Shown in pieces: positions 8,326-58,080 of a stretch of 64,000 nucleotides of DNA (positions within the stretch are counted from its first letter, which is position 1; the number at the start of each line of letters is the position of its first letter). A program made the translations under genes and the position numbers. The stretch comes from Girardia tigrina (lineage: Eukaryota), in assembly GCA_001938485.1 (NCBI GenBank), contig MQRK01235601.1:1-64000 (forward strand), in the 5' to 3' direction. The notes under the pieces were generated by a model that saw nothing but the letters and a program-made list of their open reading frames with translations, was not told the origin of the DNA and made no database searches.

Positions 8326-9406
8326 CGTTCATATTTGGCATCATTCTAATTCTAAAATGATTGACCGTAAATTTTGCAGAGATAACATAAATAAATTAAA
8401 TAGCTTTAAATAAATAAATAATTACGCAAGTAAATTTAAATAAAGTAATTAAAGTAAAGTAAAAAAATAATTAAAATAAGTACTTAAATAATTTTTAAAT
8501 AAATAAGTCTGTTTGTTTTATTTGAGTTAAAGCATATCTTCAACCAGATGAATATGCTCTAAATTATTAGAATAGATGATACATCTCTTACTATTCGATT
8601 CTAGAAAAAAAATTTGTACGGGACATTTAGCTGTTCTAAATACTGAACACTTATAATAGATCTTAATACCTTCATTGGTGCTTCTTGACCATTTAGATCC
8701 GTTTTATGTCCGGGTGAAATTCTCTGCAGATATTTTATCATCTAATTGGCGGATTTCATCGTATAAAAAGTTACCCCTCTTGTTCTTCTTTCTATTGTTC
8801 TTTCTTTCACTTGTAAAGCTTCTTCTAATTTTACACTATCATCTATATTGTCGGGAATTTAAAAGTTATTCATTTTTACGGTAAAAAAGTTATCTGAATT
8901 GATTATTCATTATTTTGCTAGCAATTTTTTACCGTTTTCTATAAATTTATATGTATTATATATGATATTTGAATTATATCTTTATAAGATTTCATAAAAT
9001 AACGATTTTCGATAATTAAAAAATTATCATTGGAAAATTTAATCATTGAAAATTAATCATTGGAAAATGAGTTAATAAACTTTCATGATATATTAGTTTA
9101 TTAACTCGCTTTAACAATTAAAAAATAAATAAAAATATAAAGTAAATTTTAATTTAACTATGTAATAAAATAATATAACACCAATCAACTATACATATAT
9201 TAAGAATACAAATATCACGAGAAAAGTCAAAAAATCCCATGTTGATAGTTTTGATAATTGAATGTAACGAGACAAGAAAGACAGAAATTTGATAATTCCA
9301 ATTTGGTTTCTTATATTTCTCGCATAATAATTTTTTAAATTATTTAATCGATTTTTTATTGATCTTTATTTTCTATATAATTATATAATTTATTTGGATA
9401 ATTTAA

Positions 9407-9465
9407 TATATATATNNNNNNNNNNNNNNNNNNNNNNNNNNNNNNNNNNNNNNNNNNNNNNNNNN

Positions 9466-9525
<60 letters not shown>
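9407..9525. repeat. (AT)n microsatellite spanning an assembly gap
   Basis: AT runs flanking Ns. Confidence 0.95.
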
Positions 9526-9529
<4 letters not shown>

Positions 9530-11918
9530 AGTGACTTGGTCACTACAATCATTAATCAAGGTTATAAGTAACTGGATTTATTTTATTAGTTGCTGATTTA
9601 TTTTTTTTGTCACAAATTTTATTTATTTTGTCGTCCTTTATTTTCGGTAGCCTTTTTGAATTATCCAATGGGAAATAGGTTTGTGTTTTTTTATAGAATG
9701 ATTATTTTGTAAATTCTGAAATGTGTGTACGATGTGTGGTATGTGTGAAATAAAGAAAATGATTGGTTGATAGGTGTGTTGGATTTATACCAATTTTTTA
9801 TTATCTAATTGATTTAATTGAATTTTTTATTTATTACTGCCAATACATTATTTTGATATGAACCTTATCAGGAGATTCCTCCTGATGCTGGTGAGTGGTT
9901 CATATCGTACCAAATTAAGTTCATTTGGTCCTGTAACCTTACCAGTGAACAAAATCCAATACCTTCCAGGTTTTTCAAAACTGCTTTTACTATATCTTGA
10001 AGTAACTGTTATCGAATGGTTGATTTAGTTCTATAATATGTTTTATAAGTTTTTATGATCATGAAAAGATTTACATTTCGTGAAAAGGGTTTTATGTTTT
10101 GATATATTTTGTCTATATGTTTATTAAATTTATTATTTAGTTGTACTATTTTCATTTTCATTTTTCAGTCATAGTCAAGAAAAAGAAAGGAATAAAACTA
10201 AACAAAAATTTATTTACTCACTGTAAACAAAAGAAAAAGTTTATCACTTATCGGAATTCAATAAGACAATAAATTCTTCCTCCTGATTGGTGGTGATATG
10301 TCGATACTTGAGCCAATCTTTCTTTTCTTTCCATGCCTGGAATTTCTAATCGAGAACCAGTCGCTTTTGCCTCTCCAAAATTTCATCGAAGCTGTTTCTA
10401 GATTGCGACAGAGCAACATAATCATGTTTGCTGCATGGTGACGTCGTTCACGACTGTTCGGTGTTGTGGATGTTCACAATCCTTGTCTCCGCGACTGGTT
10501 TCTTTAAGAGATGACTTTTCTACAGCTTGTCCTTAGCCTGATGATTTAATTGCGCCCTCGTTTCCTTCGTTCCCGACAATTTAGAGCTCGGTTGATAGTG
10601 CTGGGGGAGAACAACATCATGTCTTCTTTTAAATCGACCCATAAATCGATGCACTTGAAGTGGGGTTCTAATAACCCCATTCTCAGGTATTTTCTTTTAT
10701 ATCTCATTATATGCTTCGATGAGGATCTTAGGGTGCTCCTGACAAACACCATAGACAATTTTTCGTCGGTAATTATGGATGTTTTGCTGGATGCGAATAT
10801 CTTTAATCTCTATTTGAAGAGATCTGATCTTCCGCTGGGCCTCTAAACACCTCTCTACGGTGGGTCTATGCACACACAAAGGAACTGAATTTCTTCTGTA
10901 TTCCTCCAATTCTAATACAGCATCCGTTAGATCGACCTTTACCTTTCCGTATTTTTTCTTCTATTCTCTGAGCTCCTGAAAAAGGTTTTGTTTCTTTTTC
11001 ATTGTTTAATTTTGATTTTCTGGAATGATAAGATAATGACGATGGATAAAAAAAGAAAACACAAACACTGAGCTGAATGGAGGTTGGATATTCGGTTTAA
11101 TATTTAATTTTTGACCAACGTTCGGGGCTTTTTAACGAAGCGTCACCTTCTCTTCTGCTGCCAGATTGTCAACAGTCACGGCATGTACTATGAGCACCTG
11201 TCGCTATCCGTCCACAGATCAGCGGCCACGTTTTCGCCAAGTAAATCCTTATTGGCGTCGTTTGTATGTTTATGGAGTGCTACCTTCTCTTCTGCTACCA
11301 GATCATCAACAGTCACGCCAGATACTATGAACACCTGCCGCTATGCACCAACAGATCGGTGGCCACCATTTTCTCCAAGTCAGTTTTCCAACATACATCC
11401 ATTCCAAGGAAAATGAAGGAAAACTTTATTTTTACCAAAATAAATAATAACTACCAATTTGTAAAAGAATTTATTAATCTACTTTTCTAATACCAAATCG
11501 TCAATTTATACAAAACTGGCGAAGAAAATAAATGACATTGAACAAAAGACCACATACAAAGGACTTCCATCAAAACATAAACCGATACACTCTTAATCTC
11601 GTCATGATGAAAGTCTCAAAGAAAAACAATAAACCTCACACAGGGAGGTTTCCATCAAAACACGAAGCGATACACGAGATATTAACACCATAATGAAAGT
11701 CCCGAGACAACCCACAGAAAAACAAATCAATCAAACTTTGACTAATCGGTTTTGTCAATTAATGAATTTTTTGACAAATTAATTAATTAATAATTGTACT
11801 TTATTTTTTAGACTCCAGATGATTTCCGACCACCCCAACGCGAACCCAGGAAGGTCTTCAACCGCCTCCACCCTGTGCTATGAACGGACGCTAGTTCGAA
11901 AGGAGACCGATCCCGACA
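9526..11918. mobile_element. ~2.4-kb TG...CA LTR-like element, divergent relative of 15098-17199
   Basis: Starts TGTTAG at the edge of the AT run and ends ...TCCCGACA. Colinear with 15098-17199 in ORF2 region, ORF1, doubled hairpin motif and terminal splice acceptor. No TSD seen (TATA vs TGTG), so the left boundary is uncertain. Confidence 0.65.
10244..11002 (-). pseudogene. Disrupted copy of the uncharacterised coiled-coil/basic ORF1 of the LTR-like element
   Basis: MKKKQNLFQELRE*KKKYGKVKVDLTDAVLELEEYRRNSVPLCVHRPTVERCL...IRIQQNIHNY...KEKKDWLKYRHITTNQEEEFIVL aligns end to end with the 15579-16390 protein; in-frame stops. Confidence 0.8.
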
Positions 11919-12474
11919 TGTGCATGCGTGTGCTCTTGTTTTATTGATCAAAACTTTTGTCTAACTTCTGTTCAATTTGGTGTAAAAGAAGATATTCAGA
12001 TTTGTCAATTCAATTTCATTGAACCAGCTTAATTTGAAGTTAAAAGTATACTCTTGTGCAAATTAATCTGAACACTGTTATTTTTTTCTCATCTATTTAA
12101 TTGAATGTCTGTTGATACCCATACTTGGTTTAAAATTTCAGAATAAGTATGTTATACAAGTACTTGTTATGTTTAACATAACACAGGGCAACAAAAAAAA
12201 TGTTTAATTTAAATTTTTAGTGTTTTTTATAAAATTTTGACATGCTGATTCTAGTGGAAACGGTGGTTTGGATGAAAAAGCCATTTTTTTGAAAAATTCA
12301 TTAGTATGACTACGCTAACCATTATTTTGTTATATCTTTAACGATTTTCATATTATTATTGATTTTATTATTTGTTTGTAGATAAAAATACCATCTAGAC
12401 ACTGTAAATTATCATCTGACTGTTTTTGCTATTGGGAGATATTATAAAATTAAATTTAAATTAATTAAATAAAA

Positions 12475-12648
12475 TGTTACACAATCAACAAATTTAGAAT
12501 AATTCAAAATTTGTATTATATAACTATAACGGGGTGGAGAGCCGAGTTAACCTTTGACTCTCCTTTTATTCTGTATATAAATAATGTTAGTGTGTTTGTG
12601 ATTTAGTTTTATTAAATATGTTTAGTGCAGATCTTTTATCTTCTAACA
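12475..12648 (+). repeat. Putative short 5' LTR of Gypsy element 1
   Basis: TGTTA...TAACA termini, TATA-like and ATTAAA motifs inside, followed directly by TGG (PBS-like) and the gag reading frame. Confidence 0.5.
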
Positions 12649-14299
12649 TGGTAAACTACGCAAATTTTATCAATCATATGATTCCGGAAGTGTTCAATGG
12701 ACAACAAGACATCAACGAATTTATTACGGATTGCAATAGATTCTTTGCAACTTCCAAAATTGAAGGAGACGTCCAAAATGTATTCGTCAAAGGACTGTTG
12801 GCCAAGGATCTAATTCCAATTTATGAAGCTGTGGATCCGAAGATAACCAAATTTGATAAACGGTTGAAATGAGCTTTTGAGAAACCATCTTCATTAATTC
12901 ATGATTTTATGAATTTAGATTTAACAACTTCAGACAAAGAAGAAATGACAATGTGACTGCAATCAATTCAGAAGTGAGGCTCGTAGAACGTGGAGAAGAT
13001 GATGACGAAATTGATGATGATTATTCAAAAGATTGGGCTCCGTCTTCAGGAGAGGTGATTGGAGTCATCCACTAAATGGAGGTAATTTTGTTCTCGATCC
13101 ATATGTAAATAGTTTATTTTATAAAAATTGTAATATTTTAAATTTTAATAAATCTAGTAATTTTGATTATCTTAGTAAAAATAGTGATAATAAAAATAGT
13201 AAATGTAAAAATGTATGTATTGAAAATAAACGAAATAAAATTACTAAAAATAAAAATGTTAAAAGTAATTCTATTTTGAATGAGTGTTAAATTTTTTATG
13301 ATGATAATTTTTATTTAAATAATGATTTTAAAATTTATTCGTTAGATGAAATTAAAAATGTAAATAATAATATCTCATGCCCCAACGATAAGGTAAAAAT
13401 CACGTATAAGATTATGAATGGTAGACCTAGTATTAAGATTAGGATTAACGAATTTTTTGCATATTGTCTTTTAGATACAGGGGCCCGTATAAGTGTGATA
13501 GATAGAAGTTTGATTGATAGATTAAAGAACGTGAATGTAACGGGTTCAGAAGATAAAATATATTGTGCGAATGATAGTTCGTTGTAGTTATAAATGTTAT
13601 AATGTTAAAATTGTTATAGTTATTAATGTTAATGATAGTTATATTAATGATATTTATTAATGTTAAAATTGATTATTATAATGAAGACAGAATTTTATAT
13701 TGCTGATAAAGTTACGCGAAAAATAATTGCAGAAATGAATTTCTTAAATAAATTTAACTTCAAATTAATTTTAGAAGAGAATTTAAATAATTGTAAAGAT
13801 AATGACTTCTAAAATATTCAAAATATAATATAAAAATATAAAATATTCAAACTATATTGCAACATAGATGCGAAATTTGAGAAACAAGTTACTGAACTTG
13901 AAAGGTTCGATAAGGCAATAAAACATTTTAATATTGGTTCAAAATCGGGGTTATTTAAAGTAATGCAGCAGCACAAAAATGTTTTCATGGAACATCAATG
14001 GGATATAGGATGCACAAATATTATGAAACACAGGATATTAACTTATGGAGGACCTATAAATATCAAACCGAGACGTCAGCCCATAAATTTAGAGGATAAA
14101 ATTGATGAAGCCACAATAAATTTAGAGAGGAATGGAATAATTCGGAAATGCAACTCTCCATTGAACACACTAATGGTTTGTGTCTGGAAAAAGGAAAAGA
14201 AAGACATAAGATTATGTTTAGATTTTAGGCAACTTAATAAGATAACGAAATGACCGGCCTTTCCAATGCCTCATATAGAAGGTGTTGGATATTCTAATT
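12648..14299 (+). mobile_element. Ty3/Gypsy element 1, left part (degraded gag, protease, RT N-terminus)
   Basis: gag-like IPEVFNGQQDINEFITDCNRFF; protease LLDTGARISVI (~13468); RT WDIGCT..KHRILT..PINIKP..GIIRKCNSP..IRLCLDFRQLNK..FPMPHIE. Confidence 0.9.
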
Positions 14300-14479
14300 C
14301 AGGGGTCCCCAACCTTTTTAACTCGTCGACCCCTTTATGACCTAATTATCTTATCCTCGACCCCTACTTAAGTTTAATGAAAACATTAACTATTTTTGAA
14401 ATAATTTAATATACTTTTCGATTTAAATAATCAAAAAACTTTACTGATATGTAAATATTTATTTTTTATAATAATTACA

Positions 14480-15097
14480 TTAATGAGATGGTTGTGGTTG
14501 ATGAGCAGCGGCAAGACTATTGATATTAGATTGAAAATTAGTGAGCTTAAGTCTTAAATCACCACGGTTTTCCAGGTTTAATCTATTCCTCTGTTTTGTC
14601 GAAATTGTGTTAGCATGGCTAAAACCAGCTTCAACTATATACGACGTTGGGAATGAAAGTAAGAAAGGCTCAGCTGCAGTCCTGAGCTTGGGATACTTTA
14701 TAGCAATATTGATGTTCCTCCAATATCCACTGATGTCTCCTCCTTTAAATAAGACTTTAGCTTCGAGATCTACACTCATTTCAATAAGTTCATCTTCCAG
14801 GTCACATTCATTACATTCATCATTTATTTTNNNNNNNNNNNNNNNNNNNNNNNNNNNNNNNNNNNNNNNNTTCTCCAAATCTTCGAAACGCTTTTTGAAA
14901 TCTTCTAATAACTGATCAAGATGTTTAATAAATATCTCCAACTCACAGTCTGCAATGTTTTCTGATTCTTTCAGTATTTGCAAGTTTGGAAATTATTTTG
15001 AAATCATTACGTGTTAATGATGACTTGAATAGTTCCAATTTTACTTGAAAGCTCATTATCATTGTACGGGCTTGAATAATTGTAATATTTTTTCCTT
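14480..15097 (-). pseudogene. hAT transposase C-terminal part (dimerisation region)
   Basis: GKNITIIQART..F..KLELF; YPKLRTAAEPFLLSFPTSYIVEAGFS...KQRNRLNLENRGDLRLKLT...QPSH. Confidence 0.9.
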
Positions 15098-17199
15098 TGT
15101 TGGGGGGTGATATTATTGGTGTTGTATTTTATATGATTATTCTAATTTTATTAGTTTAAATTCATGTTTTTCATGTTATGCTTTAGCATCTTAGTTTATT
15201 TTGACCCAACATATTATTTAGATATGTCTCTCCTCTAAGTGTCCCTAACTCACACTTATTAGAGATTCATATCGTACCCCATCAACTCCATCTTGCCCTT
15301 TCATCTCGCCAGTGAAGCTGATGAAGTACCTACTGGGTTCTACATTATATTTAAATATATTAAGTCTATGAAAGTCGGCTTATGCTACTTCTATTTAATT
15401 AATGATCATCTTATTTTTTTTAACATGTTTTTTTTGATTACTATATTTCTTATTATAAGTTTATCATTTTTACATCAGAGATTTAAGTTAAAAGAACATG
15501 AACAAATTATATGTTTACATTGCTTTATTAAAATATAACAAAAGAAAAGACTAATCAAAGGCAATCCACCCATCGTCCCTAATCATCTAAATCTGCTAGA
15601 TTGATAAATTCTTCACCCTGACCAGTTGTGATAGATCGGAACTGTAAACGGTCACGAATCTCCTTCTGAATTTCAAGTTTTGACTTAAAGTTCAGCCATT
15701 CTTGTTGTTCAATAGTCTCTTGAAATTTATTTGTTGGAAGAAGCAGCGAAATTTGATGCGAGNNNNNNNNNNNNNNNNNNNNNNNNNNNNNNNNNNNNNN
15801 NNNNNNNNNCGTCTTTCCATCTTGGACGTCAGCCTCAATACGACTGGTTTTAAAAATAGCTTGCAGCTCATTCTTGGCCTGTTGAAACATTTGAGCCTTT
15901 CGCTTCCTCTGCTCCCGCCGCTTCTGAGATCTGTTGAACACCCCAGAGGAAGATGATGCCATATCCTCTTTCATAATTGACCCATAAATGTTCGGGTTCG
16001 TCACCAGAGGCTTCTTCTCTGTATTTGATCCAATTTTGTTTGCCGTTTCTATAATTATTTCCGGTTGCTCTTCTGAAACCTTTTCGATCACTTTCTTGTA
16101 GTAGTTGGACATATTTTGTTGAATTCTTATCTCGGTGACCTCGTTTTGCAANNNNNNNNNNNNNNNNNNNNNNNNNNNNNNNNNNNNNNNNNNNNNNNNN
16201 NTTGTCCTAGCAAATATTTGTCCACAACCGGTTTGTGAATTGATAGAGGAACGGAATTCTTTCTGTAGTCCTCAAATTCGGTTGTCCTCTTCGTTAATTC
16301 ATCATTCAGCTTGTCACATTTGCCTTTCCACTTCTGCAACTCAAGCAGCAGTTCTCTTTGTTGTTTTTTGGTTTCATATTTTCTATCCATGCTGAATAAG
16401 GACGATGAGTGAATAAAAAAAATTAAAAAAAAATAAAAGAACAAAAAGAATAATTGATGGAGGCTGAGAGAAACGAATTCTCTTCTAGAAATGAAATTTG
16501 GCAAGGACTTTCTCAAACTTCCAGATCGTCAATAGTCTTGGCAGGTACTATAAGCACCTGCCGTTAATCTATTAACAGATCGGCAGTTATCAAATTACCT
16601 CGCAACCTGTTCATATTCCTTACCTGATCATCAATAGTCTCGGCAGGAACTATAAGCCCCTACCGTTATCTATCGACAGATCGGCAGCCTTGATGTGCTT
16701 CCAAACTTCCATCAACTTTCAAAAAAAAATAAAAAAAATAAAAATTACCTAAGAACAAAACAAATCTTTTCAAATAAAATTTATTCAAAGAAAAAATTCT
16801 GAATAAGTGCACAAATTCGGATGAATTTATACCAATCTTTCGTCACAAAAACTCACAGAACCAGCAAGCAGACAATTCTCACAGTCAACCTTCAATCATC
16901 CATCACTAAGTCAATAGTCCTCAGGNNNNNNNNNNNNNNNNNNNNNNNNNNNNNNNNNNNNNNNNNNNNNNNNNNNNNNNNNNNNNNNNNNNNNNNNNNN
17001 NNNNNNNNNNNNNNNNNNNNNNNNNNNNNNNNNNNNNNNNNNNNNNNNNNNNTTTTTTAATTAATTAATTATAAATTATCATTATAATGTTTTATTTTTT
17101 GTTTTTTATATTTAGGGAGTTTTTCCTTTGCCTGCCTCGGTGCCGGTGCAATGAATAGGCCCGGGGCTGACGCGAAGGAAAAACTCACGGGTCCCAACA
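15098..17199. mobile_element. 2.1-kb solo-LTR-like element carrying ORFs, inserted in the hAT transposase
   Basis: Termini TGTTGGG...CCCAACA; 4-bp TSD CCTT (15094-15097, 17200-17203); removing it restores transposase KRLQG|KNIT. Confidence 0.9.
15579..16390 (-). CDS. Uncharacterised ~260-270 aa coiled-coil protein with a basic NLS-like patch (ORF1 of the LTR-like element)
   Basis: MDRKYETKKQQRELLLELQKW...NSVPLSIHKPVV (gap) QNEVTEIRIQQN...NRSQKRREQRKRK...RSITTGQGEEFINLADLDD. No stops in the visible parts; the frame across the N gaps is unverified; conserved in the 10244-11002 copy. Confidence 0.7.
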
Positions 17200-18549
17200 C
17201 CTTGCAAACGCTTCTGTACTTCATTGAATTTTGAATAAATGTCTGCTAAGTAGAACAAGTGATGTTTGTATAGTTTTAACTCGTTACATAATGATCGATC
17301 CAAATTCCATAGAAATTCTTCAGATGAATTGTACAAGTTAACAAGCCTTTGCAAACTATCGCCCCTTGACAACCATCTTNNNNNNNNNNNNNNNNNNNNN
17401 NNNTTGAAAGTTTCATCGTTTTCCTCACATAAATTTGCAAACAGTCGTGAATTGAGAGGAGAAGTTTTGATTTTATTAATTGATCTGATACACACTTTTA
17501 GAGCTTCATGTAGTTCTCCACTCATTTTTTTAGCTACAAGATGTTGCCTGTGTAAGACACAGTGAACAGTGCGTACTGTAGGAACCTTTTCCTTGAGAAA
17601 GACAGAAAATCCCCTATAGCGGCCCACCATAGCCGGTGCACCATCAGTAGCTACTGCAGTAATATTTTCAAGAGGAACATTGTGCTTGTTCAGATAATCT
17701 TTTAAGCATAAAAAAATTGTCTCACCTTTTGAATCTNNNNNNNNNNNNNNNNNNNNNNNNNNNNNNNNNNNNNNNNNNNNNNNNNNNNNNNNNNNNNNNN
17801 NNNNNNNNNNNNNNNNNNNNNNNNNNNNNNNNNNNNNNNNNNNNTCAAGTTGAATAGCAAACTTACAATGCTGGAGCTCAGAAATTAAAGTTCTTTCTAC
17901 ATCATTAGCCATTTCCTCAATACGTCGTTGTACAGTATTTCCACTTAATGGTATACATTTCAGAACTGGATCTGTTTTCATAACATTCTCAATTACATCT
18001 TTTATAGCTGGTAATATAATCTCTTCACCAATGATATACGGCTTCCCTTTTTTTGCAATATTAAAAGAGATGCTGTATGATGCTTNNNNNNNNNNNNNNN
18101 NNNNNNNNNNNNNNNNNNNNNNNNNNNNNNNNNNNGGATCTGTTTTCATAACATTCTCAATTACATCTTTTATAGCTGGTAATATAATCTCTTCACCAAT
18201 GATATACGGCTTCCCTTTTTTTGCAATATTAAAAGAGATGCTGTATGATGCTTTCAATTCTCCTTCACTTTTAGCACTGGTAGACGATTTTATAAATGTA
18301 GTCAAATTCGGTCGAGTTATAAACCTCTCTTTAAGCATTTTAAAGTACTCGATACCTTTGTTTTTCTTATCAAAATGCATTCTTTCTAAATGGTCCATCA
18401 TCTTAGCTGGTTTCATGGCATCATTGCTGAGTCTTTTCGCATAACAGGCACATAAGAATGGTTTTATTATTTATCGAAGGTAAAAAACCATATTTCAAAT
18501 ACTCGTCAGAGTATTGTCTGCATTTCTTCTTAGCATTAAAAGTCGACAT
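17200..18549 (-). pseudogene. hAT transposase N-terminal and catalytic part (Charlie/ZBED5-SCAND3-like)
   Basis: KKKCRQYSDEYLKYGF; MKPAKMMDHL; PLSGNTVQRRI; ATDGAPAMVG; HCVLHRQHL; RWLSRG. Confidence 0.95.
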
Positions 18550-18817
18550 GGGGTAGATTAAAATTGGATTCTAANNNNNNNNNNNNNNNNNNNNNNNNNN
18601 NNNNNNNNNNNNNNNNNNNNNNNNNNNNNNNNNNNNNNNNNNNNNNNNNNNNNNNNNNNNNNNNNNNNNNNNNNNNNNNNNNNNNNNNNNNNNNNNNAAA
18701 GATAAAATTTATGAAATCAATTAAAGTTTTCTAGCTATTTTCCATCTACTTCAATCGACCCCCAAGGAACTCTAATCGACCCCTGGGGGTCTATATCGAC
18801 CCCGTTGGAGACCCTTG

Positions 18818-19030
18818 TTCTAATTGGATCTCGATATTTCAGTACCATTGATTTAGGTAATGCTTATTATCAAGTGAAATTGGATGAAAAATCACAAGAA
18901 AAGGCAGCATTCTCGACAAAAACCGGAAAATTCCGCTTCAATAGGATGCCTTTTGAAATAGCAGCAGCACCCGCGGCGTTCCAGAAACCGATGACAATAG
19001 TTCTTGGTGATATGCATTGGAAAGAGAAAG
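18818..19030 (+). mobile_element. Ty3/Gypsy element 1, right part (RT continuation, truncated)
   Basis: LIGSRYFSTIDLGNAYYQV..KAAFST..FRFNRMPF..AAAPAAFQ continues the RT interrupted at 14299. Confidence 0.9.
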
Positions 19031-19164
19031 AAAGTGAAAGCAATACTTTTGATCATCATAAAGATGATAAGAATTGTGAATGTAATAAATGTTCTGTCAA
19101 ATGTGAGAGTTCTCTTAACATTAGTGTTTAGCATAAACGTGATTGCTTTATAGTTGGTACGCAA

Positions 19165-21620
19165 GGTAAACGTTTACCATACAGAAAATGTTTAAAATTG
19201 TTACAAAAATAATACATGGCAATCAATTCTTTTCTTGTAACACAATAGCCCTTCTAATGAATATTCATTAATCACGATCCATAAGCTACTACTCTTTCCT
19301 TTCCTTGATCATTTTTCTGTGTTAACACGGCTCCAATCGTATCGAAACTAGCATTGGTATCTTGAAGAAAATCACTTTTCATGTCTGAAAAACACAATAC
19401 CGGACTTTTCATTAATGCATTCTTCATCTCTTCGAATGCTAACTCTACCGCGCTTGTCCAATTCAGTTTTTTATTGTTGTTCAGCCCGCATAATTGTTCT
19501 AATACTTTAGCTTTCTTTGCATACTATTTTATAAATCGTCGCAAATAGTTACAAATGCCTAAAAAGATACGTAGATTTTTCATACATTTTGCTTCTCAAA
19601 CGTTCTTCTTGCTTTAATCTTTGATGGGTTCATTTTTACAACGTCTTCGTTACTATATATCCTAGGAATTTTATTTCCCGTTTCAACATTGAAATTTTTC
19701 AGGGTTCACCCCAATCCTGCTTTCCTAAAATTATCTAAAACTTGATTCAAAACAATATAGTGTGGCTCCCGATCTTTTGTGTATACCAAGATATCATCTA
19801 AGTATACAGTTGCACTCTTGATTCCCCCGACTACCTTTGTCATCATCTTTTGGAAAGTTCCCGGTGCAGCAGCTATACCAAACGGCATACGAGTAAAACA
19901 ATACTGTCCTTGCTTTGTAGAAAATGCCGCCTTTTCCTGAGTTTCTTTGTCCAGCTCAACCTGATAATAAGCATTTCAAAGGTCAGTTGAGCTAAAATAC
20001 TTTGCACCTCCTAAAGCATCCAACATCTCATCAACATTGGGCATCGGAGAAACTTGTTTCTCCGTTAATGCATTTTACACCCAAAATCCAAACAGATACG
20101 AATATCCTTCTTCTCTTTTTTTCCACACACAAATTAATGTTCCAAGGTGAATTACACTTCTGAATGATATTATTATCACACAAATTTTTTATAGTTTCCA
20201 TATTATTTTCTTCGAGATGTTTTGGTTAACGAAAAGGTTTTTAATTAATTGGCTCCGCAGTCGTCTTAATATGATGTTTTGCTAAACTGGTACATCCGAT
20301 ATCCCATTTGTCAGTCATGAATACTTCTGCCTGTTTCTGAATGACTTCTAACAGTTTTGAATCTACTTTACATATGCAATCTAACGCTCTTTTTAATCTC
20401 TCTCCTGGTCTTATCACTCTACCCAATTTCGCCTCAATGTTACACACACTTCCATGTGCTTCCCTTGATACATTATTGCCTTGCGACTTGTTCTTTTTTA
20501 TGGAATAACCGAAAATTTTCATGAATACTAAACCTCTAATTAGTTCAGGAACCACACTTTCCACAACAATAAATGGTACTACTTTTCTTATTATTTTTCT
20601 TATATCTACTTCTACCTCTATTTTACCCATTACTTTCAATTTTCCGTCGTTGGCACCTCTCAAATTGATATGGCATTTTTCTAACACCAAATTATTCAAA
20701 TCCTGATAATACTTTTTACTCATAAAATTAACACCTGCTCCTGTATCCAACAAACACTCCCACTGTTTCTACTAAATTTCCACTGTAACACTCGAACGTC
20801 CCTGCATTTTACTATAACATATCTCCGATTTCTGATCATCAATCAACACATTAACATAGAATACTTGCTCAAAATTCTTTTTTAAAAAATCCATAGACCT
20901 TATTCATTGTTCGCACATCCAACGTGCATTCAACTCCATAGGAATTATCTTCTAAGATCAATGGCATCCGGCTCCCACCAACTCCCCAATTGGTGGAGCC
21001 CAGTCGTTTGCGTACGGCTTAACGTTTTTTTTCATTGTCATCAAATGTGCATTCTTCATCCTCGTTCATTGTGTTGATTTTAAATTTCCGATCCTTGTTC
21101 TGCATTCTCGATCTACCATTGTCGTAACCATTATTCTGTCTGATAGAGTTCACTAAACATGCCACTGCTAGATGCCAAATTCCGGCCACATTTTTCATAG
21201 CGTATCTCTGGACATTGAGTTCGCCTATGTCCCTTTTTCCTGCACAAGAAAAAAACCAATGGCTGTCTGTTAGGATAGTTTCGACTGATTTGCCCAGTCT
21301 CTTGATAATTCCAACACTGCACATGTCTTTTTTGTTGGCAATTCATGCTGAAATATCCTGTTTGATGACAATTGTAGCATTTGGGTTCGGTTGATTCCGC
21401 CCTTAAAAGTTGTTTTCTCGGCTGAGTCTGATTTACCCATTTTGTAGTTACCTCAGGAGCCCTGCTGTTTTATACAAAATCTTGATAACTTTGGATAGCA
21501 TTGATCCTGCTCTTTTTTTCGTGGTTTATTTCGTCTACGAGTGCAAAGAATTCATATATTTCCTTGACACTCTTTCATTTTAGTAATTTGATTTGACGAA
21601 CAACATCTTCATCATCATAT
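19165..21620 (-). mobile_element. Ty3/Gypsy element 2 (degraded gag with several zinc knuckles, protease, RT, RNase H)
   Basis: CYNCHQTG, CWN..ETG, FLCRKKGHRRTQC knuckles; LLDTGAG; WDIGCT; MPFGIAAAPGTFQ; YLDD; FLGICNYLRRFI; RNase H DTNASFDTIGAVL. Confidence 0.95.
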
Positions 21621-23199: not shown

Positions 23200-24411
23200 C
23201 TAGGGTGATTCAAAAGTTATTTCGTTTTCCCCTCATAATTTCAAGATAACAAAGCATGTAATCAGAACACATATATTCTTTGAAATACAAGCCTTTATTT
23301 TCAGGGCTCCTCAACCATCTTTCAGCCAGTTGCTCGATTCCGTAAGTATACCACTCTGTTGTTTTCTTCTACTGAATCGAAACGTCGCCCTTTGAGAAAA
23401 TGCTCCATTGCCCGAAAGAGGTGGTAGTCCCAAGGGCAGATTCAGGGCTGTATGCAGGGCGTGGCAAATATTTGTTCCCTGCAGCTTTTGCACTTTACCA
23501 CTAGTCAAACGTGCAGTATGTGCCGGAGTGTTGTCTTGTTGTAGAAGAACTTGATTGTGATTGACCAATGCCGAGTAACGATCACAGAGAATGGCTTAGA
23601 CTCTTTCCAGCTGCAGGAATGTAGAAGTTGGCATTCACAGTACGTTCCTCTGGAACGAGCTCAAAGTGGATCATTTCCTCAAAATTCCACTATATACAGA
23701 GCATAACTTTGTAATCGAAGCGTCCTTATTTAACCACGGGTTGCGTGGGCATACCAGGTACAGCCACTGATTCTCCTTGTTGGGATTATGGAAAAATATC
23801 TACGTCATTATATTTAAATATCCATGTTATTATATTTCTGAAATATCATGGGATTTAGTAAGCAATTCTTTGCAGAGATCAAGTCGTTGTTGTGCTTGAG
23901 AGGCGGTCACTTTTTGAGAAATTTGTGGACACTGTATATTGACAAGGTCAAGCTGATGAAGATGACGTTGAATAGGGAGTTATGAAGAACTAAGATCTGT
24001 TTATAATCTCCGCTTGCTGGTGCAGGACTACTCTTCTACAACTTGACATAGAGTGTCACCATCAACAAAAAATCGTCGCTCAGAACAAGATTGGTCTTCC
24101 AAATTGACGTCGCCACTTGAGAAACGCTTGAACCACAATTGTGACACACGAACACTGACCGTATCATTATTGTCTTTTACTTCAAATATTTCTTGGGCTG
24201 CAGCAGCTAATTTAAAGCCTATTTTCCAGAAATGTCACAAAATTTCTCGAATTCCGTATTTTTCGATCTCCATAATCTGATAAGAATAAACAAACCAACG
24301 TTTAATGAATAAATAATATAAAAGTCAATAATGCCAAAATAGAATATCCATATAAAATAACTGTCACAATGTAAGGCATAGAAAAACGAAAAAACATTTG
24401 AATCATCCTAA
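23200..24411 (-). mobile_element. Mariner transposon, full-length degraded copy A
   Basis: TIRs TAGGGTGATTCAAAAG / TTTGAATCATCCTA, TA on both flanks; transposase motifs LLQQDNTPAHTA and SQLWFKRF; homologous to 56802-58080. Confidence 0.92.
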
Positions 24412-54663: not shown

Positions 54664-55151
54664 CTTGGATAGTACAAGACCGCTGGTTTCATAAGGATTC
54701 ATATTCAGATGAATCATCATGAAACTCCAACATCCAACGCCCAGAGAGAAGAAAACTTGGAAGAAGAGAACGAGGAAGAGCCGACATCAAACCAATCCAA
54801 TCCTCAGTTTCCGGACGCAACTGTGAGTATGCCAAGGATACAGCCGAACGACGATGCCGAAGAGACGCACCTACAATACCGACTACCAGCCGATTACAAG
54901 ACTGCAAGAGGACAATTCAAGTGCCCATTTCGAGGTTGTTACGCGTTCACCGTAACAGCCAACCGTACGACTATGATACCAAGTTCCATGGTTGGTCGTT
55001 CGTTACTGGCAAGACGACTGCTCAGAGGCGGAAGGCCACTGACCCGTAGGAGGCCTATCGGGGGGCCCTTAAGGACTTTAGTTTGGGTGGATCCTCTAAA
55101 GAGCCTTAGGCTCAATACCATTACAGAGATGGGAGGCCCATCTTGGATAGT
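54664..55151 (+). mobile_element. GC-rich island with acidic N-terminus and partial zinc finger; possible fragment of a non-LTR retrotransposon
   Basis: ORF 54709-55161 with FKCPFRGC; hairpin-rich distal part; bounded by the direct repeat CTTGGATAGT. Confidence 0.4.
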
Positions 55152-56801
55152 TGTCAAATGAACCAATATCAGAAGAAAATGAGGGGATTTATTTCTAAAG
55201 AAACAGCTGGTCAAACATGGTACGCCATTGTAAATTATAGATTTTAAAACTTATCAACTAAGCAATGGCTGAAGATCAGAAAATGTTAATTTACTCACTA
55301 TCTGATTCTTCCATCATTGTTAGGTAGTTTTTCTTTCATTTTTTATGAGTGTTCATTTACTTACTTCACTTACTTAAATTGTACTTTATTGTATGAGGAT
55401 ATCAGTAGCAAAATGAGGGATATACTATATGCTTTTTTATAGTTTCCAACATGTTTTTACGTTTCCGATGTATTCTAAAAACAGAGATGTAGAATTTAAA
55501 CATTACATTTACGTAAACAATTTTTTAAAGATGTTTATAAATTTTATATTTCTACTAAATAAAAGAAATTGAAAACATAAAAGTGTTTTTCCTGTAAAAA
55601 TAATTTTTAGAAGCTACACGTTTTGCTACTGAGCATTTTTATAAATATATAATATATTAATAGAAAATGAGAGAGAAAATTTGATTAAAATATTTTTAAA
55701 ATATAATTTATTTTTCTAGCAACCTCAGAGGCGCCGAAAACAGTTTGTTATGGGCGAATATCAGTGTTGAAACCGGCGGATACATTCACAATAGAGACGT
55801 AAGATTATATTGCCTCAATAATTTATAACAACATTTGTATTATGTTTTGTCATATATTTATTATTTATTTTAAAATATTATTTGATCAAAAAGCAAGTGA
55901 CAATAAATAAATTAAACATTTATATATTCGATAAAGTAAAAAATTATAAAATAATTATGACACTTTTTATTTATTGTTTTATTATTACAAAAGCCTTTTG
56001 TAATCAAACAATTCTCAATAGAATAAATAACATAAATATATTTTTTAATTAATTTGCATTTCTTTTTTAAAGACTATTTACAAAAATACTTCAGTATACA
56101 AATGGCTTTTAAAATATTATGTGGTATTTTAAATAAATTATAGACAAAATATTATTTTATATATATATATATATATTATACATAAATAAAAATATTTATT
56201 TTAAAAATTTTTTTTTAATTTATTGTTTTTTATTAATATTGTGTTTATTTTATAAATTCATTCTTTGATTTGCAATAATACATTACTACAATATCTGCCT
56301 TACATTAATAGACAATAAATTTTATATGATTATTACTACGATAGGAAGTAAAATGTAATTGAACTCTATTTGTTACGGAAATAAATTTATTACTTTAAAT
56401 ATACTGATCATTTCTTTTGCATTGAACGAAATGTGTACACTTTATTGACACTTAATAAATTAGTTTATTGTTATATCATACATTATATGACATCAATATA
56501 ACAATATTAATAAAATGTGTTAATAAAATTATAAAGTTCCATAAGTAATTATAAGTTATATACAAGTAGTCCTAGGTTACAGCCGGAATTCTGTTGTTAC
56601 AAAAGCCGGCACAAATCAAACTAACGTTCAATTTATTGAAATTTTATTTGAGGTAAATGTTATCAGAATATCCGTAAAGTCTTACGGTCCAATACTCTCG
56701 TCCCAAAGCTGAATTAATATGATTTCGTACAATGTTTGGGTTCACGTTTTTGCATCTAACTGAAGCAGGACATATAAATGTTGTAACATCAGCTCGTTCT
56801 A

Positions 56802-58080
56802 ATAGGGTAATTCAAAAGTTTTTTTCTGTTTTCTATGCCTTAAATTGTGACAGTTATTTTATATGGATATTCTATTTTGGAATTATTGATTTTTATATTA
56901 TTTATTATGGTATTACATGACAAATCTCCCGGTATAGTGTTGGTTTATTCATTATACGTTTGTTTGTTTATTTTAATCAGGTTATGGAGAGCAAAAAAAT
57001 ACGGAATACGAGTCATTTTGCGACATTACTGGAAAAGAGGCTTCAAAGCAGCTGCTGCAGCGCGGGAAATATGTGAAATAGAAGGCAAAAGTACGATCAG
57101 TGTTCGTGTGTCACAATTGTGGTTCAAGCGTTTCTCAAGTAGTGACGTCAATTCGGAAGATTAACCTCCTCTGGGCGACCATCTGTTGTTGATGATGACA
57201 CTCTACGTCAAGCTTTGGAGAAGAGGTCCGTGTCAGGACGCGGAGATTATCAGCAGAGCTTGGTCATTCACAACCAACTATTCAACGTCATCTTCAGCAG
57301 CTTGGCCTTGTCAGTAGACGGTCTCGACTAATTCCTCCCGAATCGACAGCCTCTAAAGCACAGCAACGACTTTATCTTTGCAAAGAATTGCTTGCTCACC
57401 CCATGACTTGCGCTCCTTCAGAATGATCGTGACGTGAGATGAAAAGTGGATATTTTTCTTTAATACCAATAAGGAGAATCAATTTCTCTACCCTGGTATG
57501 CTCGCCCAACCCGTGATTAAACAAGGAAGCTTCGATTGCAAAGTTATGCTCTGTTTATAGTGGAATTTCAAGGAGGTGATCCACTTTGAGCTGGTTCCGG
57601 AGGGAGTACTGTGAATGCTAATCTCTATACTAAGCAACTGGATAGAGTCTATACCATTTTCTGTGAGCGTTACCCAGCATTGGTCAATTGCAACCGAGTT
57701 TTTCTACAACAAGACAACACTCCGGCACCCACTGCACGTTTGACTCGTGGTAAAGTACAAGTGCTGCAGGGGAAAAAAGTTTTGCCACACACTGCCTACA
57801 GCACTAACCTTGCCCTCAGCGACTACTAATTCTTTCGGACAATAGTGCATTTTCTCAAGGGGCGGCAGTTTAATTTAGTAGAAGAGGTTTAAACAAGGAT
57901 GCCACGATTTCTTTGCTTCCGAAACGACAGGGTGGTATATCCATGGAATCCAGAAAATGGCTAAAAGATGGTTGAAGACCATCGAAAATAAAGGCCTGTG
58001 TTTCGAAGTTCTGTACTTCGTATTCTGTTTACATGCCTTATCATCTTGAAAATATGAAAAAAAACTTTTGAATCACCAAA
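56802..58080 (+). mobile_element. Mariner transposon, degraded copy B (same family as 23200-24411)
   Basis: TIRs TAGGGTAATTCAAAAG / CTTTTGAATCACC; AAAAREICEIEG..SQLWFKRF; IVT*DEKWIFF; LQQDNTPAPTA; HTAYSTNLALSDY. Confidence 0.92.

Follow-up and report, generated by a model that had tools for sequence, protein, structure and literature searches.

A solo-LTR-like insertion in Girardia tigrina with a conserved gene flanked by predicted RNA structures

Long terminal repeats (LTRs) that stand alone in a genome are usually taken as inert or cis-regulatory debris, and programs that find LTRs presume that these ends are non-coding. What, then, is a sharply bounded insertion that has the ends of an LTR and yet holds a gene? 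Such an insertion, here called E1, lies at positions 15098..17199 of a 64,000-nucleotide stretch of DNA from Girardia tigrina (GenBank assembly GCA_001938485.1, contig MQRK01235601.1, positions 1 to 64,000 of the forward strand; hereafter the window). It carries an open reading frame of about 258 codons, ORF1, which is flanked by predicted RNA hairpins, and a decayed co-linear relative, E2, lies nearby at 9526..11918. Both are read here on the minus strand, the strand of the ORF and of the hairpins, which is taken as sense. Judging from sequence, we consider E1 to be probably a solo LTR of a Ty3/Gypsy family whose LTR, about 2.1-2.4 kb long, is both coding and structured. That it represents a coding LTR in some form, including one whose paired copies were collapsed during assembly, is somewhat more probable again.

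Boundaries of the insertion and its gene

E1 is 2.1 kb long, begins with the short inverted repeat TGTTGGG (15098..15104, plus strand) and ends with CCCAACA (17193..17199, plus strand). These sequences fit the two halves of the consensus TGTTRNR...YNYAACA for the LTR ends of animal Metaviridae and retroviruses, which are described as complementary for about 7 bp inward (PMC3601003; this and the other articles cited by PMC number were available in excerpt). In E1 the inverted match is perfect over 7 bp and then falls to 9 of 33 positions. Since it ends at base 7, it fits LTR ends rather than the terminal inverted repeats (TIRs) of Ginger elements. The 4-bp target-site duplication (TSD) CCTT lies directly outside, at 15094..15097 and 17200..17203, and carries no strand. 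A first-pass annotation, made from the sequence alone, had given these ends and this duplication, which proved exact, and had read them as the footprint of an integrase, a reading that the consensus ends, the 7-bp match and the 4-bp TSD uphold. Within the window, 818 pairs of LTR-consensus ends lie 0.3-6 kb apart. Seven of them have a 4-bp duplication outside, and E1 is the sole pair among the 818 that combines such a duplication with a perfect 7-bp inverted repeat.

The same annotation had found no gag, pol, integrase or transposase in E1, and none appeared in a six-frame reading of the element or in Pfam searches with the pieces of ORF1. Terminal direct repeats are absent from both E1 and E2, and neither has a primer-binding site (PBS) or polypurine tract (PPT) beside it in either orientation, as expected if they are solo copies. 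Three runs of N interrupt E1, two of them within ORF1 (50 N and 47 N) and a third of 127 N, and on the sequence at hand the continuity of E1 rests on scaffolding and on co-linearity with the gap-free E2. The length of the 47-N gap agrees with 16 residues that are present in relatives of ORF1, and that of the 127-N gap agrees with the corresponding length in E2.

ORF1 (15579..16390, minus strand) is readable as three stop-free pieces of 63, 114 and 60 codons, or 237 in all. In an intact metagenomic relative of 258 aa they correspond to residues 1-63, 69-182 and 199-258, with identities of 60/63, 103/114 and 53/60, respectively. The reading frame changes across the 50-N gap, and because the pieces map in order onto this intact relative, the change is likely an artefact of gap size. 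Differences between the ORF1 copies of E1 and E2 fall at first, second and third codon positions in the numbers 46/35/82 (p = 6e-6), with a proportion of nonsynonymous differences (pN) of 0.24-0.36 and of synonymous differences (pS) of 0.78-1.37, counted over 120 codons in four ungapped blocks picked by eye. By this substitution pattern, ORF1 is a real gene under purifying selection.

Protein searches recovered relatives of ORF1 as 5 of 57 candidates, 13 of 7507, and 7 of 1.84 billion representatives. The last of these searches had no length limit and its longest relative has 289 aa, so that it records no member fused to gag or pol. Five clusters of relatives comprise 22 members. Intact relatives are 256-337 aa long, and the six that we examined form four subfamilies that are 41-53% identical. 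Alignment-based locus scans of metagenome, viral and prokaryote contigs confirmed none of 114, 9 and 63 pattern matches, respectively. Among 24 listed sequencing runs from 12 studies, 20 hold part of E1 and two, from one study, hold half or more; two listed runs that are recorded as RNA hold 0.31 and 0.24 of E1, shares that say nothing on expression, habitat or host range. One relative, P0001, bears the JGI name ‘sucrose-6-phosphate hydrolase SacC’ (GH32), which we rejected as a likely misannotation in view of the lack of a GH32 Pfam match. Two others, P0015 and P0025, are called with an N-terminal extension that runs through the second hairpin and a T-rich tract into ORF1. This extension is likely an effect of start calling, and most members begin at the same ATG as ORF1.

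The protein was described in the first-pass annotation as a coiled-coil and basic product of about 260 aa, which agrees well with a length of about 258 aa, a predicted coiled coil at about residues 7-90 and a helix rich in lysine and arginine (Lys/Arg) near residue 146. AlphaFold places long helices at residues 9-45, 53-110, 142-169 and 211-243, with a predicted template modeling score of 0.22. The basic motif, with 8-9 Lys/Arg per 15 residues, falls within the helix at 142-169 and is present in 6/6 intact relatives, as is an acidic tail. A homodimer model of ORF1 scores 0.54, and the best of three controls scores 0.00. In calibration, the mark was reached by 21/30 microbial pairs and 0/23 microbial single chains, and by 17/29 eukaryotic pairs and 0/30 eukaryotic single chains, with 7/16 for animals and 1/7 for pairs without a solved relative. 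The runs agree on at least 53% of contacts, and the predicted local confidence of the partner (pLDDT) is only 49-51. Taken together, the modeling supports but does not show a parallel coiled-coil dimer over residues 7-90.

No known family accounts for this protein. Pfam assigns none, its best matches being coiled-coil families at E of about 0.005-0.1, and neither a gag domain nor a CCHC zinc knuckle was found at E<=1 in two ORF1 pieces and eight relatives; members of the family contain 0-2 Cys. Searches of PHROGs with ten family members gave only two weak, single-member matches, and the best match among PDB sequences was the occludin coiled coil (E 0.07). Foldseek found nothing at E<=0.001 among viral and PDB structures, the VIA structure search returned only generic, unrelated coiled coils (top Z 6.0, root-mean-square deviation 5-10), and Atlas held no family for ORF1 (top 0.82-0.83). 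The AlphaFold and Foldseek comparison that the first-pass annotation had suggested thus yields long helices and no known fold. With regard to the helical-bundle fold of a capsid, the model offers long helices, and the structure matches listed are coiled coils. By Pfam family and zinc knuckle, ORF1 is recognizable neither as gag nor as a known transposable-element domain, identities which that annotation had set against its own account.

Predicted RNA structures and candidate processing signals around ORF1

The RNA hairpins that flank ORF1 are an addition to the earlier account. On its 5′ side, E1 and E2 each hold two repeats of about 70 nt, each predicted to form a single long stem with a small loop on the ORF strand. 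In E1 these twin hairpins lie on the minus strand at 16609..16701 (copy 1, z -4.3) and 16507..16600 (copy 2, z -6.3), and in E2 at 11147-11239 and 11284-11376. The structure common to them comprises 27 pairs on the minus strand vs 19 on the plus strand, and 92.6% of its 108 cells are paired, compared with 18-52% in slid controls. Four pairs are changed on both sides, a number reached by 8/500 shuffles, for which the mean is 1.5. Substitutions in the repeats are distributed 7/9/6 over codon positions, a pattern by which we rejected a coding peptide through the hairpins despite the P0015 and P0025 calls. A search of the window with a model of the twin hairpins recovered only the four training copies, the next match being the opposite strand of one of them, and a search of viral and metagenome contigs found the motif in none.

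On the 3′ side of ORF1, a block that is about 70% identical between E1 and E2 holds a double hairpin of about 109 nt, composed of two abutting stem-loops (15221..15329, minus strand; 9855-9962 in E2). This structure is predicted separately in E1 (z -6.6) and in E2 (z -3.0) with the same layout and junction, and 6/25 consensus pairs are changed on both sides while none is broken. As background, 1/59 windows of 100 nt reaches z <= -3. A short ORF, ‘ORF2’, can be traced in this block as well, but a protein is unsupported: codon positions differ 11/7/15 (p = 0.10), other frames have similar pN/pS, there is no Pfam match, and no homologue was found among proteins of 24-102 aa (longer ones were not searched). 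By these comparisons the block is more likely a structured RNA element than a coding one. The first-pass annotation had proposed accessory genes, in the plural, within the LTR; one gene, ORF1, is borne out, whereas the second ORF behaves like structured RNA.

A GC-rich terminal hairpin at 17117..17186 has z of -3 to -4 on both strands, is assigned to neither, and is not clearly kept in E2. A search of 9400-17400 against 4227 Rfam families gave two weak matches (E 0.92 and 0.94), none credible for the hairpins, and no hammerhead. Collectively, the folding models are suggestive of RNA structures conserved between E1 and E2.

Candidate processing signals accompany these structures on the minus strand. 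Upstream of the twin hairpins, an AATAAA (16785) is followed by a donor-like GGTAA (16749) within 16745..16785, and both align with counterparts in E2 (11475 and 11436). One base before the ORF1 ATG is an acceptor-like AG (16392..16393), the top-scoring acceptor just before ORF1 in E1 (16392) and also in E2 (11020), the two lying five alignment columns apart. About 20 nt 3′ of the double hairpin is a second AATAAA (15195..15200; aligned in E2 at 9835), a candidate poly(A) signal. Of the two aligned AATAAA motifs, only that at 16785 is followed by T-rich sequence. The plus strand has no AATAAA, donor or TATA motif common to E1 and E2. It does have a pyrimidine-rich tract ending in AG at 17090-17115 in E1 and 11796-11812 in E2, about 90-110 nt from the right end, which could mark splicing if the sense of the LTR opposes that of ORF1.

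The decayed relative and the nested surroundings

E2 (9526..11918, minus strand) had been described as a divergent relative of E1 with the same order of parts. Its co-linear, gap-free layout and TG...CA ends stand, whereas it has no matching TSD, its terminal inverted repeat is weak, and its ORF1 (about 10245-11005) is broken by several stops and frameshifts. Identity with E1 is only about 55%. Each end of E2 departs from TGTTRNR...YNYAACA at one base, and the termini of the two elements have little in common past the first bases. Just inside one end of E2 is a short palindrome (9526-9545), and E2 itself borders there on about 60 nt of (TA)n with a gap beside it. An imperfect tandem duplication of about 85 nt (11541-11701) lies in the part of E2 that corresponds to the 127-N gap of E1.

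The window has a GC content of about 28%, its 12 N runs behave as short-read assembly gaps, and its long ORFs, where they can be placed, are transposon fragments. E1 sits inside a DNA transposon (14300..18817, minus strand), outside the E1 family, with the 8-bp TSD TTCTAATT and a 15-bp TIR that matches at 12/15 positions (3 mismatches). We take this host to be hAT-like from its TSD, its TIR and its likeness to such elements; there is no Pfam match. E1 splits a transposase-like frame, which resumes when E1 and the four duplicated bases are removed (the frame is identical if one base rather than four is removed). The host is itself inserted in a decayed Gypsy reverse transcriptase (RT) region (13834-14253 and 18826-19131), with an RVT_1 match in Pfam (E 1.7e-9) on 18715-19128. 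The nesting therefore has three levels, with E1 in the hAT-like transposon (14300-18817) and the latter in the RT region. We considered and rejected the idea that E1 and E2 are the two LTRs of one element, because E1 has its own TSD inside this later DNA transposon.

Other remnants lie close by. At 12630-12670 a ...TAACA end runs straight into TGG, much as an LTR adjoins a primer-binding site, and after it come decayed gag, protease and RT remains (12650-14290) whose sequence is unrelated to E1 and E2. A second decayed Gypsy-like element (19550-21470, minus strand) has a zinc-knuckle-like stretch, an aspartyl protease (Pfam E 7e-5) and RT remains. Fragments at 23300-24270 and 56844-57164 resemble mariner transposases and may derive from them. 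Farther off, at 54673-55161 on the plus strand, is a relatively GC-rich open frame of 162 codons with a possible small zinc-finger-like stretch.

Identity of E1 and comparison with known systems

How could a solo LTR come to hold a conserved gene? Solo LTRs form by recombination between LTRs (PMC6839031), and such an event in a Ty3/Gypsy element would have left E1 as a solo copy. Selection on ORF1 would have acted in the full-length mobile parent, because a solo LTR cannot move. ORF1 may be made from a spliced RNA that uses the acceptor just before its ATG, and the protein may act as a dimer on the element’s own RNA or chromatin, with the Lys/Arg-rich helix either binding the hairpins or serving as a nuclear signal. 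Two layouts can be envisioned. In the first, the LTR would have a long coding U3, R would start with the double hairpin, and the AATAAA near 15200 would be the poly(A) site; ORF1 would be expressed from the 3′ LTR, with solo copies largely silent. In the second, a promoter would lie in the first ~400 nt and the twin hairpins in an intron, such that a solo copy would amount to a small gene with all its parts. The potentially expressible cassette that the first-pass annotation envisaged in each solo LTR thus hinges on the site at which transcription begins.

A Rev/Tat-like role for ORF1 is, in our estimation, unlikely. If an LTR is granted, binding of the hairpins by ORF1 in this manner becomes a little less doubtful, though no likelier than a structural, DNA-binding or anti-silencing role. 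The most elaborate version, in which an invertebrate Ty3/Gypsy element has a control layer like that of complex retroviruses located wholly in its LTR, with a spliced gene, a dimer that binds hairpins, and solo LTRs that each hold promoter, intron, gene and poly(A) site and so regulate the surviving full-length elements in trans, is a shade less likely than the Rev/Tat-like role itself.

Several observations weigh against a coding solo LTR that works in this way. It is from its termini that E1 is read as an LTR, and neither a paired copy nor gag-pol, a PBS or a PPT came to light. Contigs that hold relatives (531-2116 nt among the relatives listed) are no longer than E1, which also fits a stand-alone element. 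The flanks of E2 differ (TATA vs TGTG), and its imperfect ends form an inverted repeat at 5 of the first 10 bases; the (TA)n run or the gap beside the left end may have removed the target duplication on that side. Taken alone, the twin hairpins of E2 do not surpass shuffled sequences in predicted folding (z -1.05 and +0.38), and the pair counts for the twin and double hairpins come from four and two related sequences, respectively, from which the structures were themselves derived. The basic helix could equally be a plain nuclear localization signal or a DNA-binding region. In DNA that is ~70% AT, motifs for splicing and poly(A) addition turn up often, with 6 minus-strand AATAAA motifs in E1 and 15 in E2, and the distal AATAAA is followed by an A/C-rich stretch where U5 is usually GT-rich.

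Among other explanations, the one that fares best keeps the solo LTR and changes only the mechanism, and so overlaps with the identity we favor. ORF1 would be a structural or chromatin protein (a gag-like RNA packaging helper, a DNA-binding dimer or a silencing antagonist), and the hairpins would be signals for packaging, dimerization or small RNAs, none of them read by ORF1. We hold this as a tentative alternative. The combination of a long coiled coil and a basic helix is generic, and the structure matches are to unrelated coiled coils, as would suit such a protein. The double hairpin also resembles in size and place the dumbbell-shaped primary microRNA (111-128 nt) of the foamy-virus U3 (PMC6950176). 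Conversely, the protein has no recognizable gag, capsid or zinc-knuckle signature and only 0-2 Cys. A small-RNA cassette transcribed by RNA polymerase III (Pol III) is further disfavored by the lack of a T4 run right after the twin hairpins (the nearest are 69 and 95 nt off) and of one in the 11-15 nt 3′ of the double hairpin.

E1 might instead be a stand-alone, non-autonomous unit that moves in DNA form when a Gypsy-like integrase or a Ginger-type transposase acts on it in trans. It would then carry a gene with its own promoter, intron, ORF and poly(A) signal, whose product aids spread through anti-silencing, packaging or addiction. The minus-strand anatomy does read as a self-contained gene, many relatives have an ORF1 that is wholly or almost intact, the relatives listed lie on contigs of at most 2116 nt, and TG...CA ends with a 4-bp TSD are also typical of Ginger elements (PMC2836005). 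However, metagenome contigs are short in any case, and the termini of E1 and E2 share few bases, unlike ends that are read by one transposase. The Ginger-like alternative raised in the first-pass annotation fails on defining features. The TIR of E1 is 7 bp rather than the 40-270 bp of Ginger1, and its TSD is CCTT rather than CCGG or CCGT/ACGG. Ginger2/TDD and GingerRoot can be set aside as well, since E1 lacks their TIRs of 50-180 or 100-150 bp, the RTATAY target and the 6-bp TSD. We therefore regard a stand-alone unit as distinctly unlikely. Should E1 nonetheless move alone, it would be an integrase-mobilized gene cassette with 7-bp ends that falls outside all of the Ginger groups checked.

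Still less probable is that short-read assembly merged the two near-identical LTRs of a full-length element, in which case the LTR would again be coding. The three N gaps of E1 and a duplicated stretch that flanks the gap at 18086-18135 are in its favor, and the fit of the 47-N and 127-N gaps to 16 residues and to E2, together with the same layout in a gap-free E2, argues against it. The TRIM and LARD classes have two terminal direct repeats with a PBS and a PPT inside, and were rejected in the absence of such repeats from E1 and E2. Finally, a host gene or fragment captured by an ordinary LTR, with no role for the element, is hardly credible: LTR elements can pick up ORFs (PMC6431247), but the 1.84 billion representatives include only seven family members and no cellular homologue, selection extends across subfamilies that are 41-53% identical, and ORF1 has the same place in E1 and E2.

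If E1 is indeed a coding solo LTR, a Gypsy LTR with a selected gene and covarying RNA would mean that the design of complex retroviruses, with an accessory gene in the LTR, had arisen in Metaviridae as well. Many solo copies could then be genes for trans-acting regulators (two lie within 8 kb here), and the family would offer a small, testable protein-RNA pair. In the literature searched, mostly without subscription journals and with Repbase and Dfam outside the search, we found no account of a Gypsy LTR that contains an ORF, and novelty is accordingly provisional.

Compared with known systems, E1 shares with animal Ty3/Gypsy solo LTRs its consensus ends with ~7-bp complementarity, its 4-bp TSD, within the 4-6 bp usual for this group, and, as candidates, the AATAAA and stem-loops that are conserved LTR parts (PMC3601003). 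Unlike the usual examples, E1 and E2 are 2.1-2.4 kb long and have a selected gene of ~258 aa and three conserved predicted RNA structures. Ginger1 and Ginger2 share the TGT...ACA ends and 4-bp TSD of E1, but they have long TIRs (40-270 bp and about 50-180 bp) with specific targets (PMC2836005) and an integrase-like transposase, and GingerRoot has TIRs of 100-150 bp and a 6-bp TSD (PMC6839031). Among planarian elements, Burro/GYPSM1 is Gypsy-like, has accessory ORFs and occurs in AT-rich flatworm genomes; its extras sit in or upstream of a polyprotein of ~5000 aa, and none of the domains named in the excerpt is present in ORF1 (PMC6431247). Expanded planarian Gypsy families have been left unidentified (PMC11410931), and GLT2, a PIWI-silenced planarian transposon with a Repbase-based name (PMC8532177, PMC10954484), is a candidate for a prior annotation of the E1 family.

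The complex retroviruses offer a parallel in layout. The sag and nef genes are located in U3, and Rev, Tat and Rex use arginine-rich motifs. ORF1 shares with Rev, Rex, Rem and Tat a Lys/Arg-rich helix and predicted oligomerization, a likeness of composition only, without homology, and it has no sequence or fold similarity to the proteins of foamy virus, mouse mammary tumor virus (MMTV), HIV or HTLV. In MMTV, Sag and Rem are made from spliced RNAs and Rem binds the RNA element RmRE, and the 5′ poly(A) site of HIV-1 and of foamy viruses is kept in check by a splice donor (PMC12789967). Antisense genes driven by LTRs also exist (PMC10186651). Bovine foamy virus has a dumbbell of 111-128 nt in U3 after bet/bel2 (PMC6950176), and the hairpins of E1 differ from it in having no directly following Pol III terminator. 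What E1 has in common with these viruses is an arrangement only, that of a double hairpin placed after an accessory ORF in the LTR: the ~109-nt structure comes after ORF1, in a putative U3, much as the foamy-virus dumbbell follows its accessory gene.

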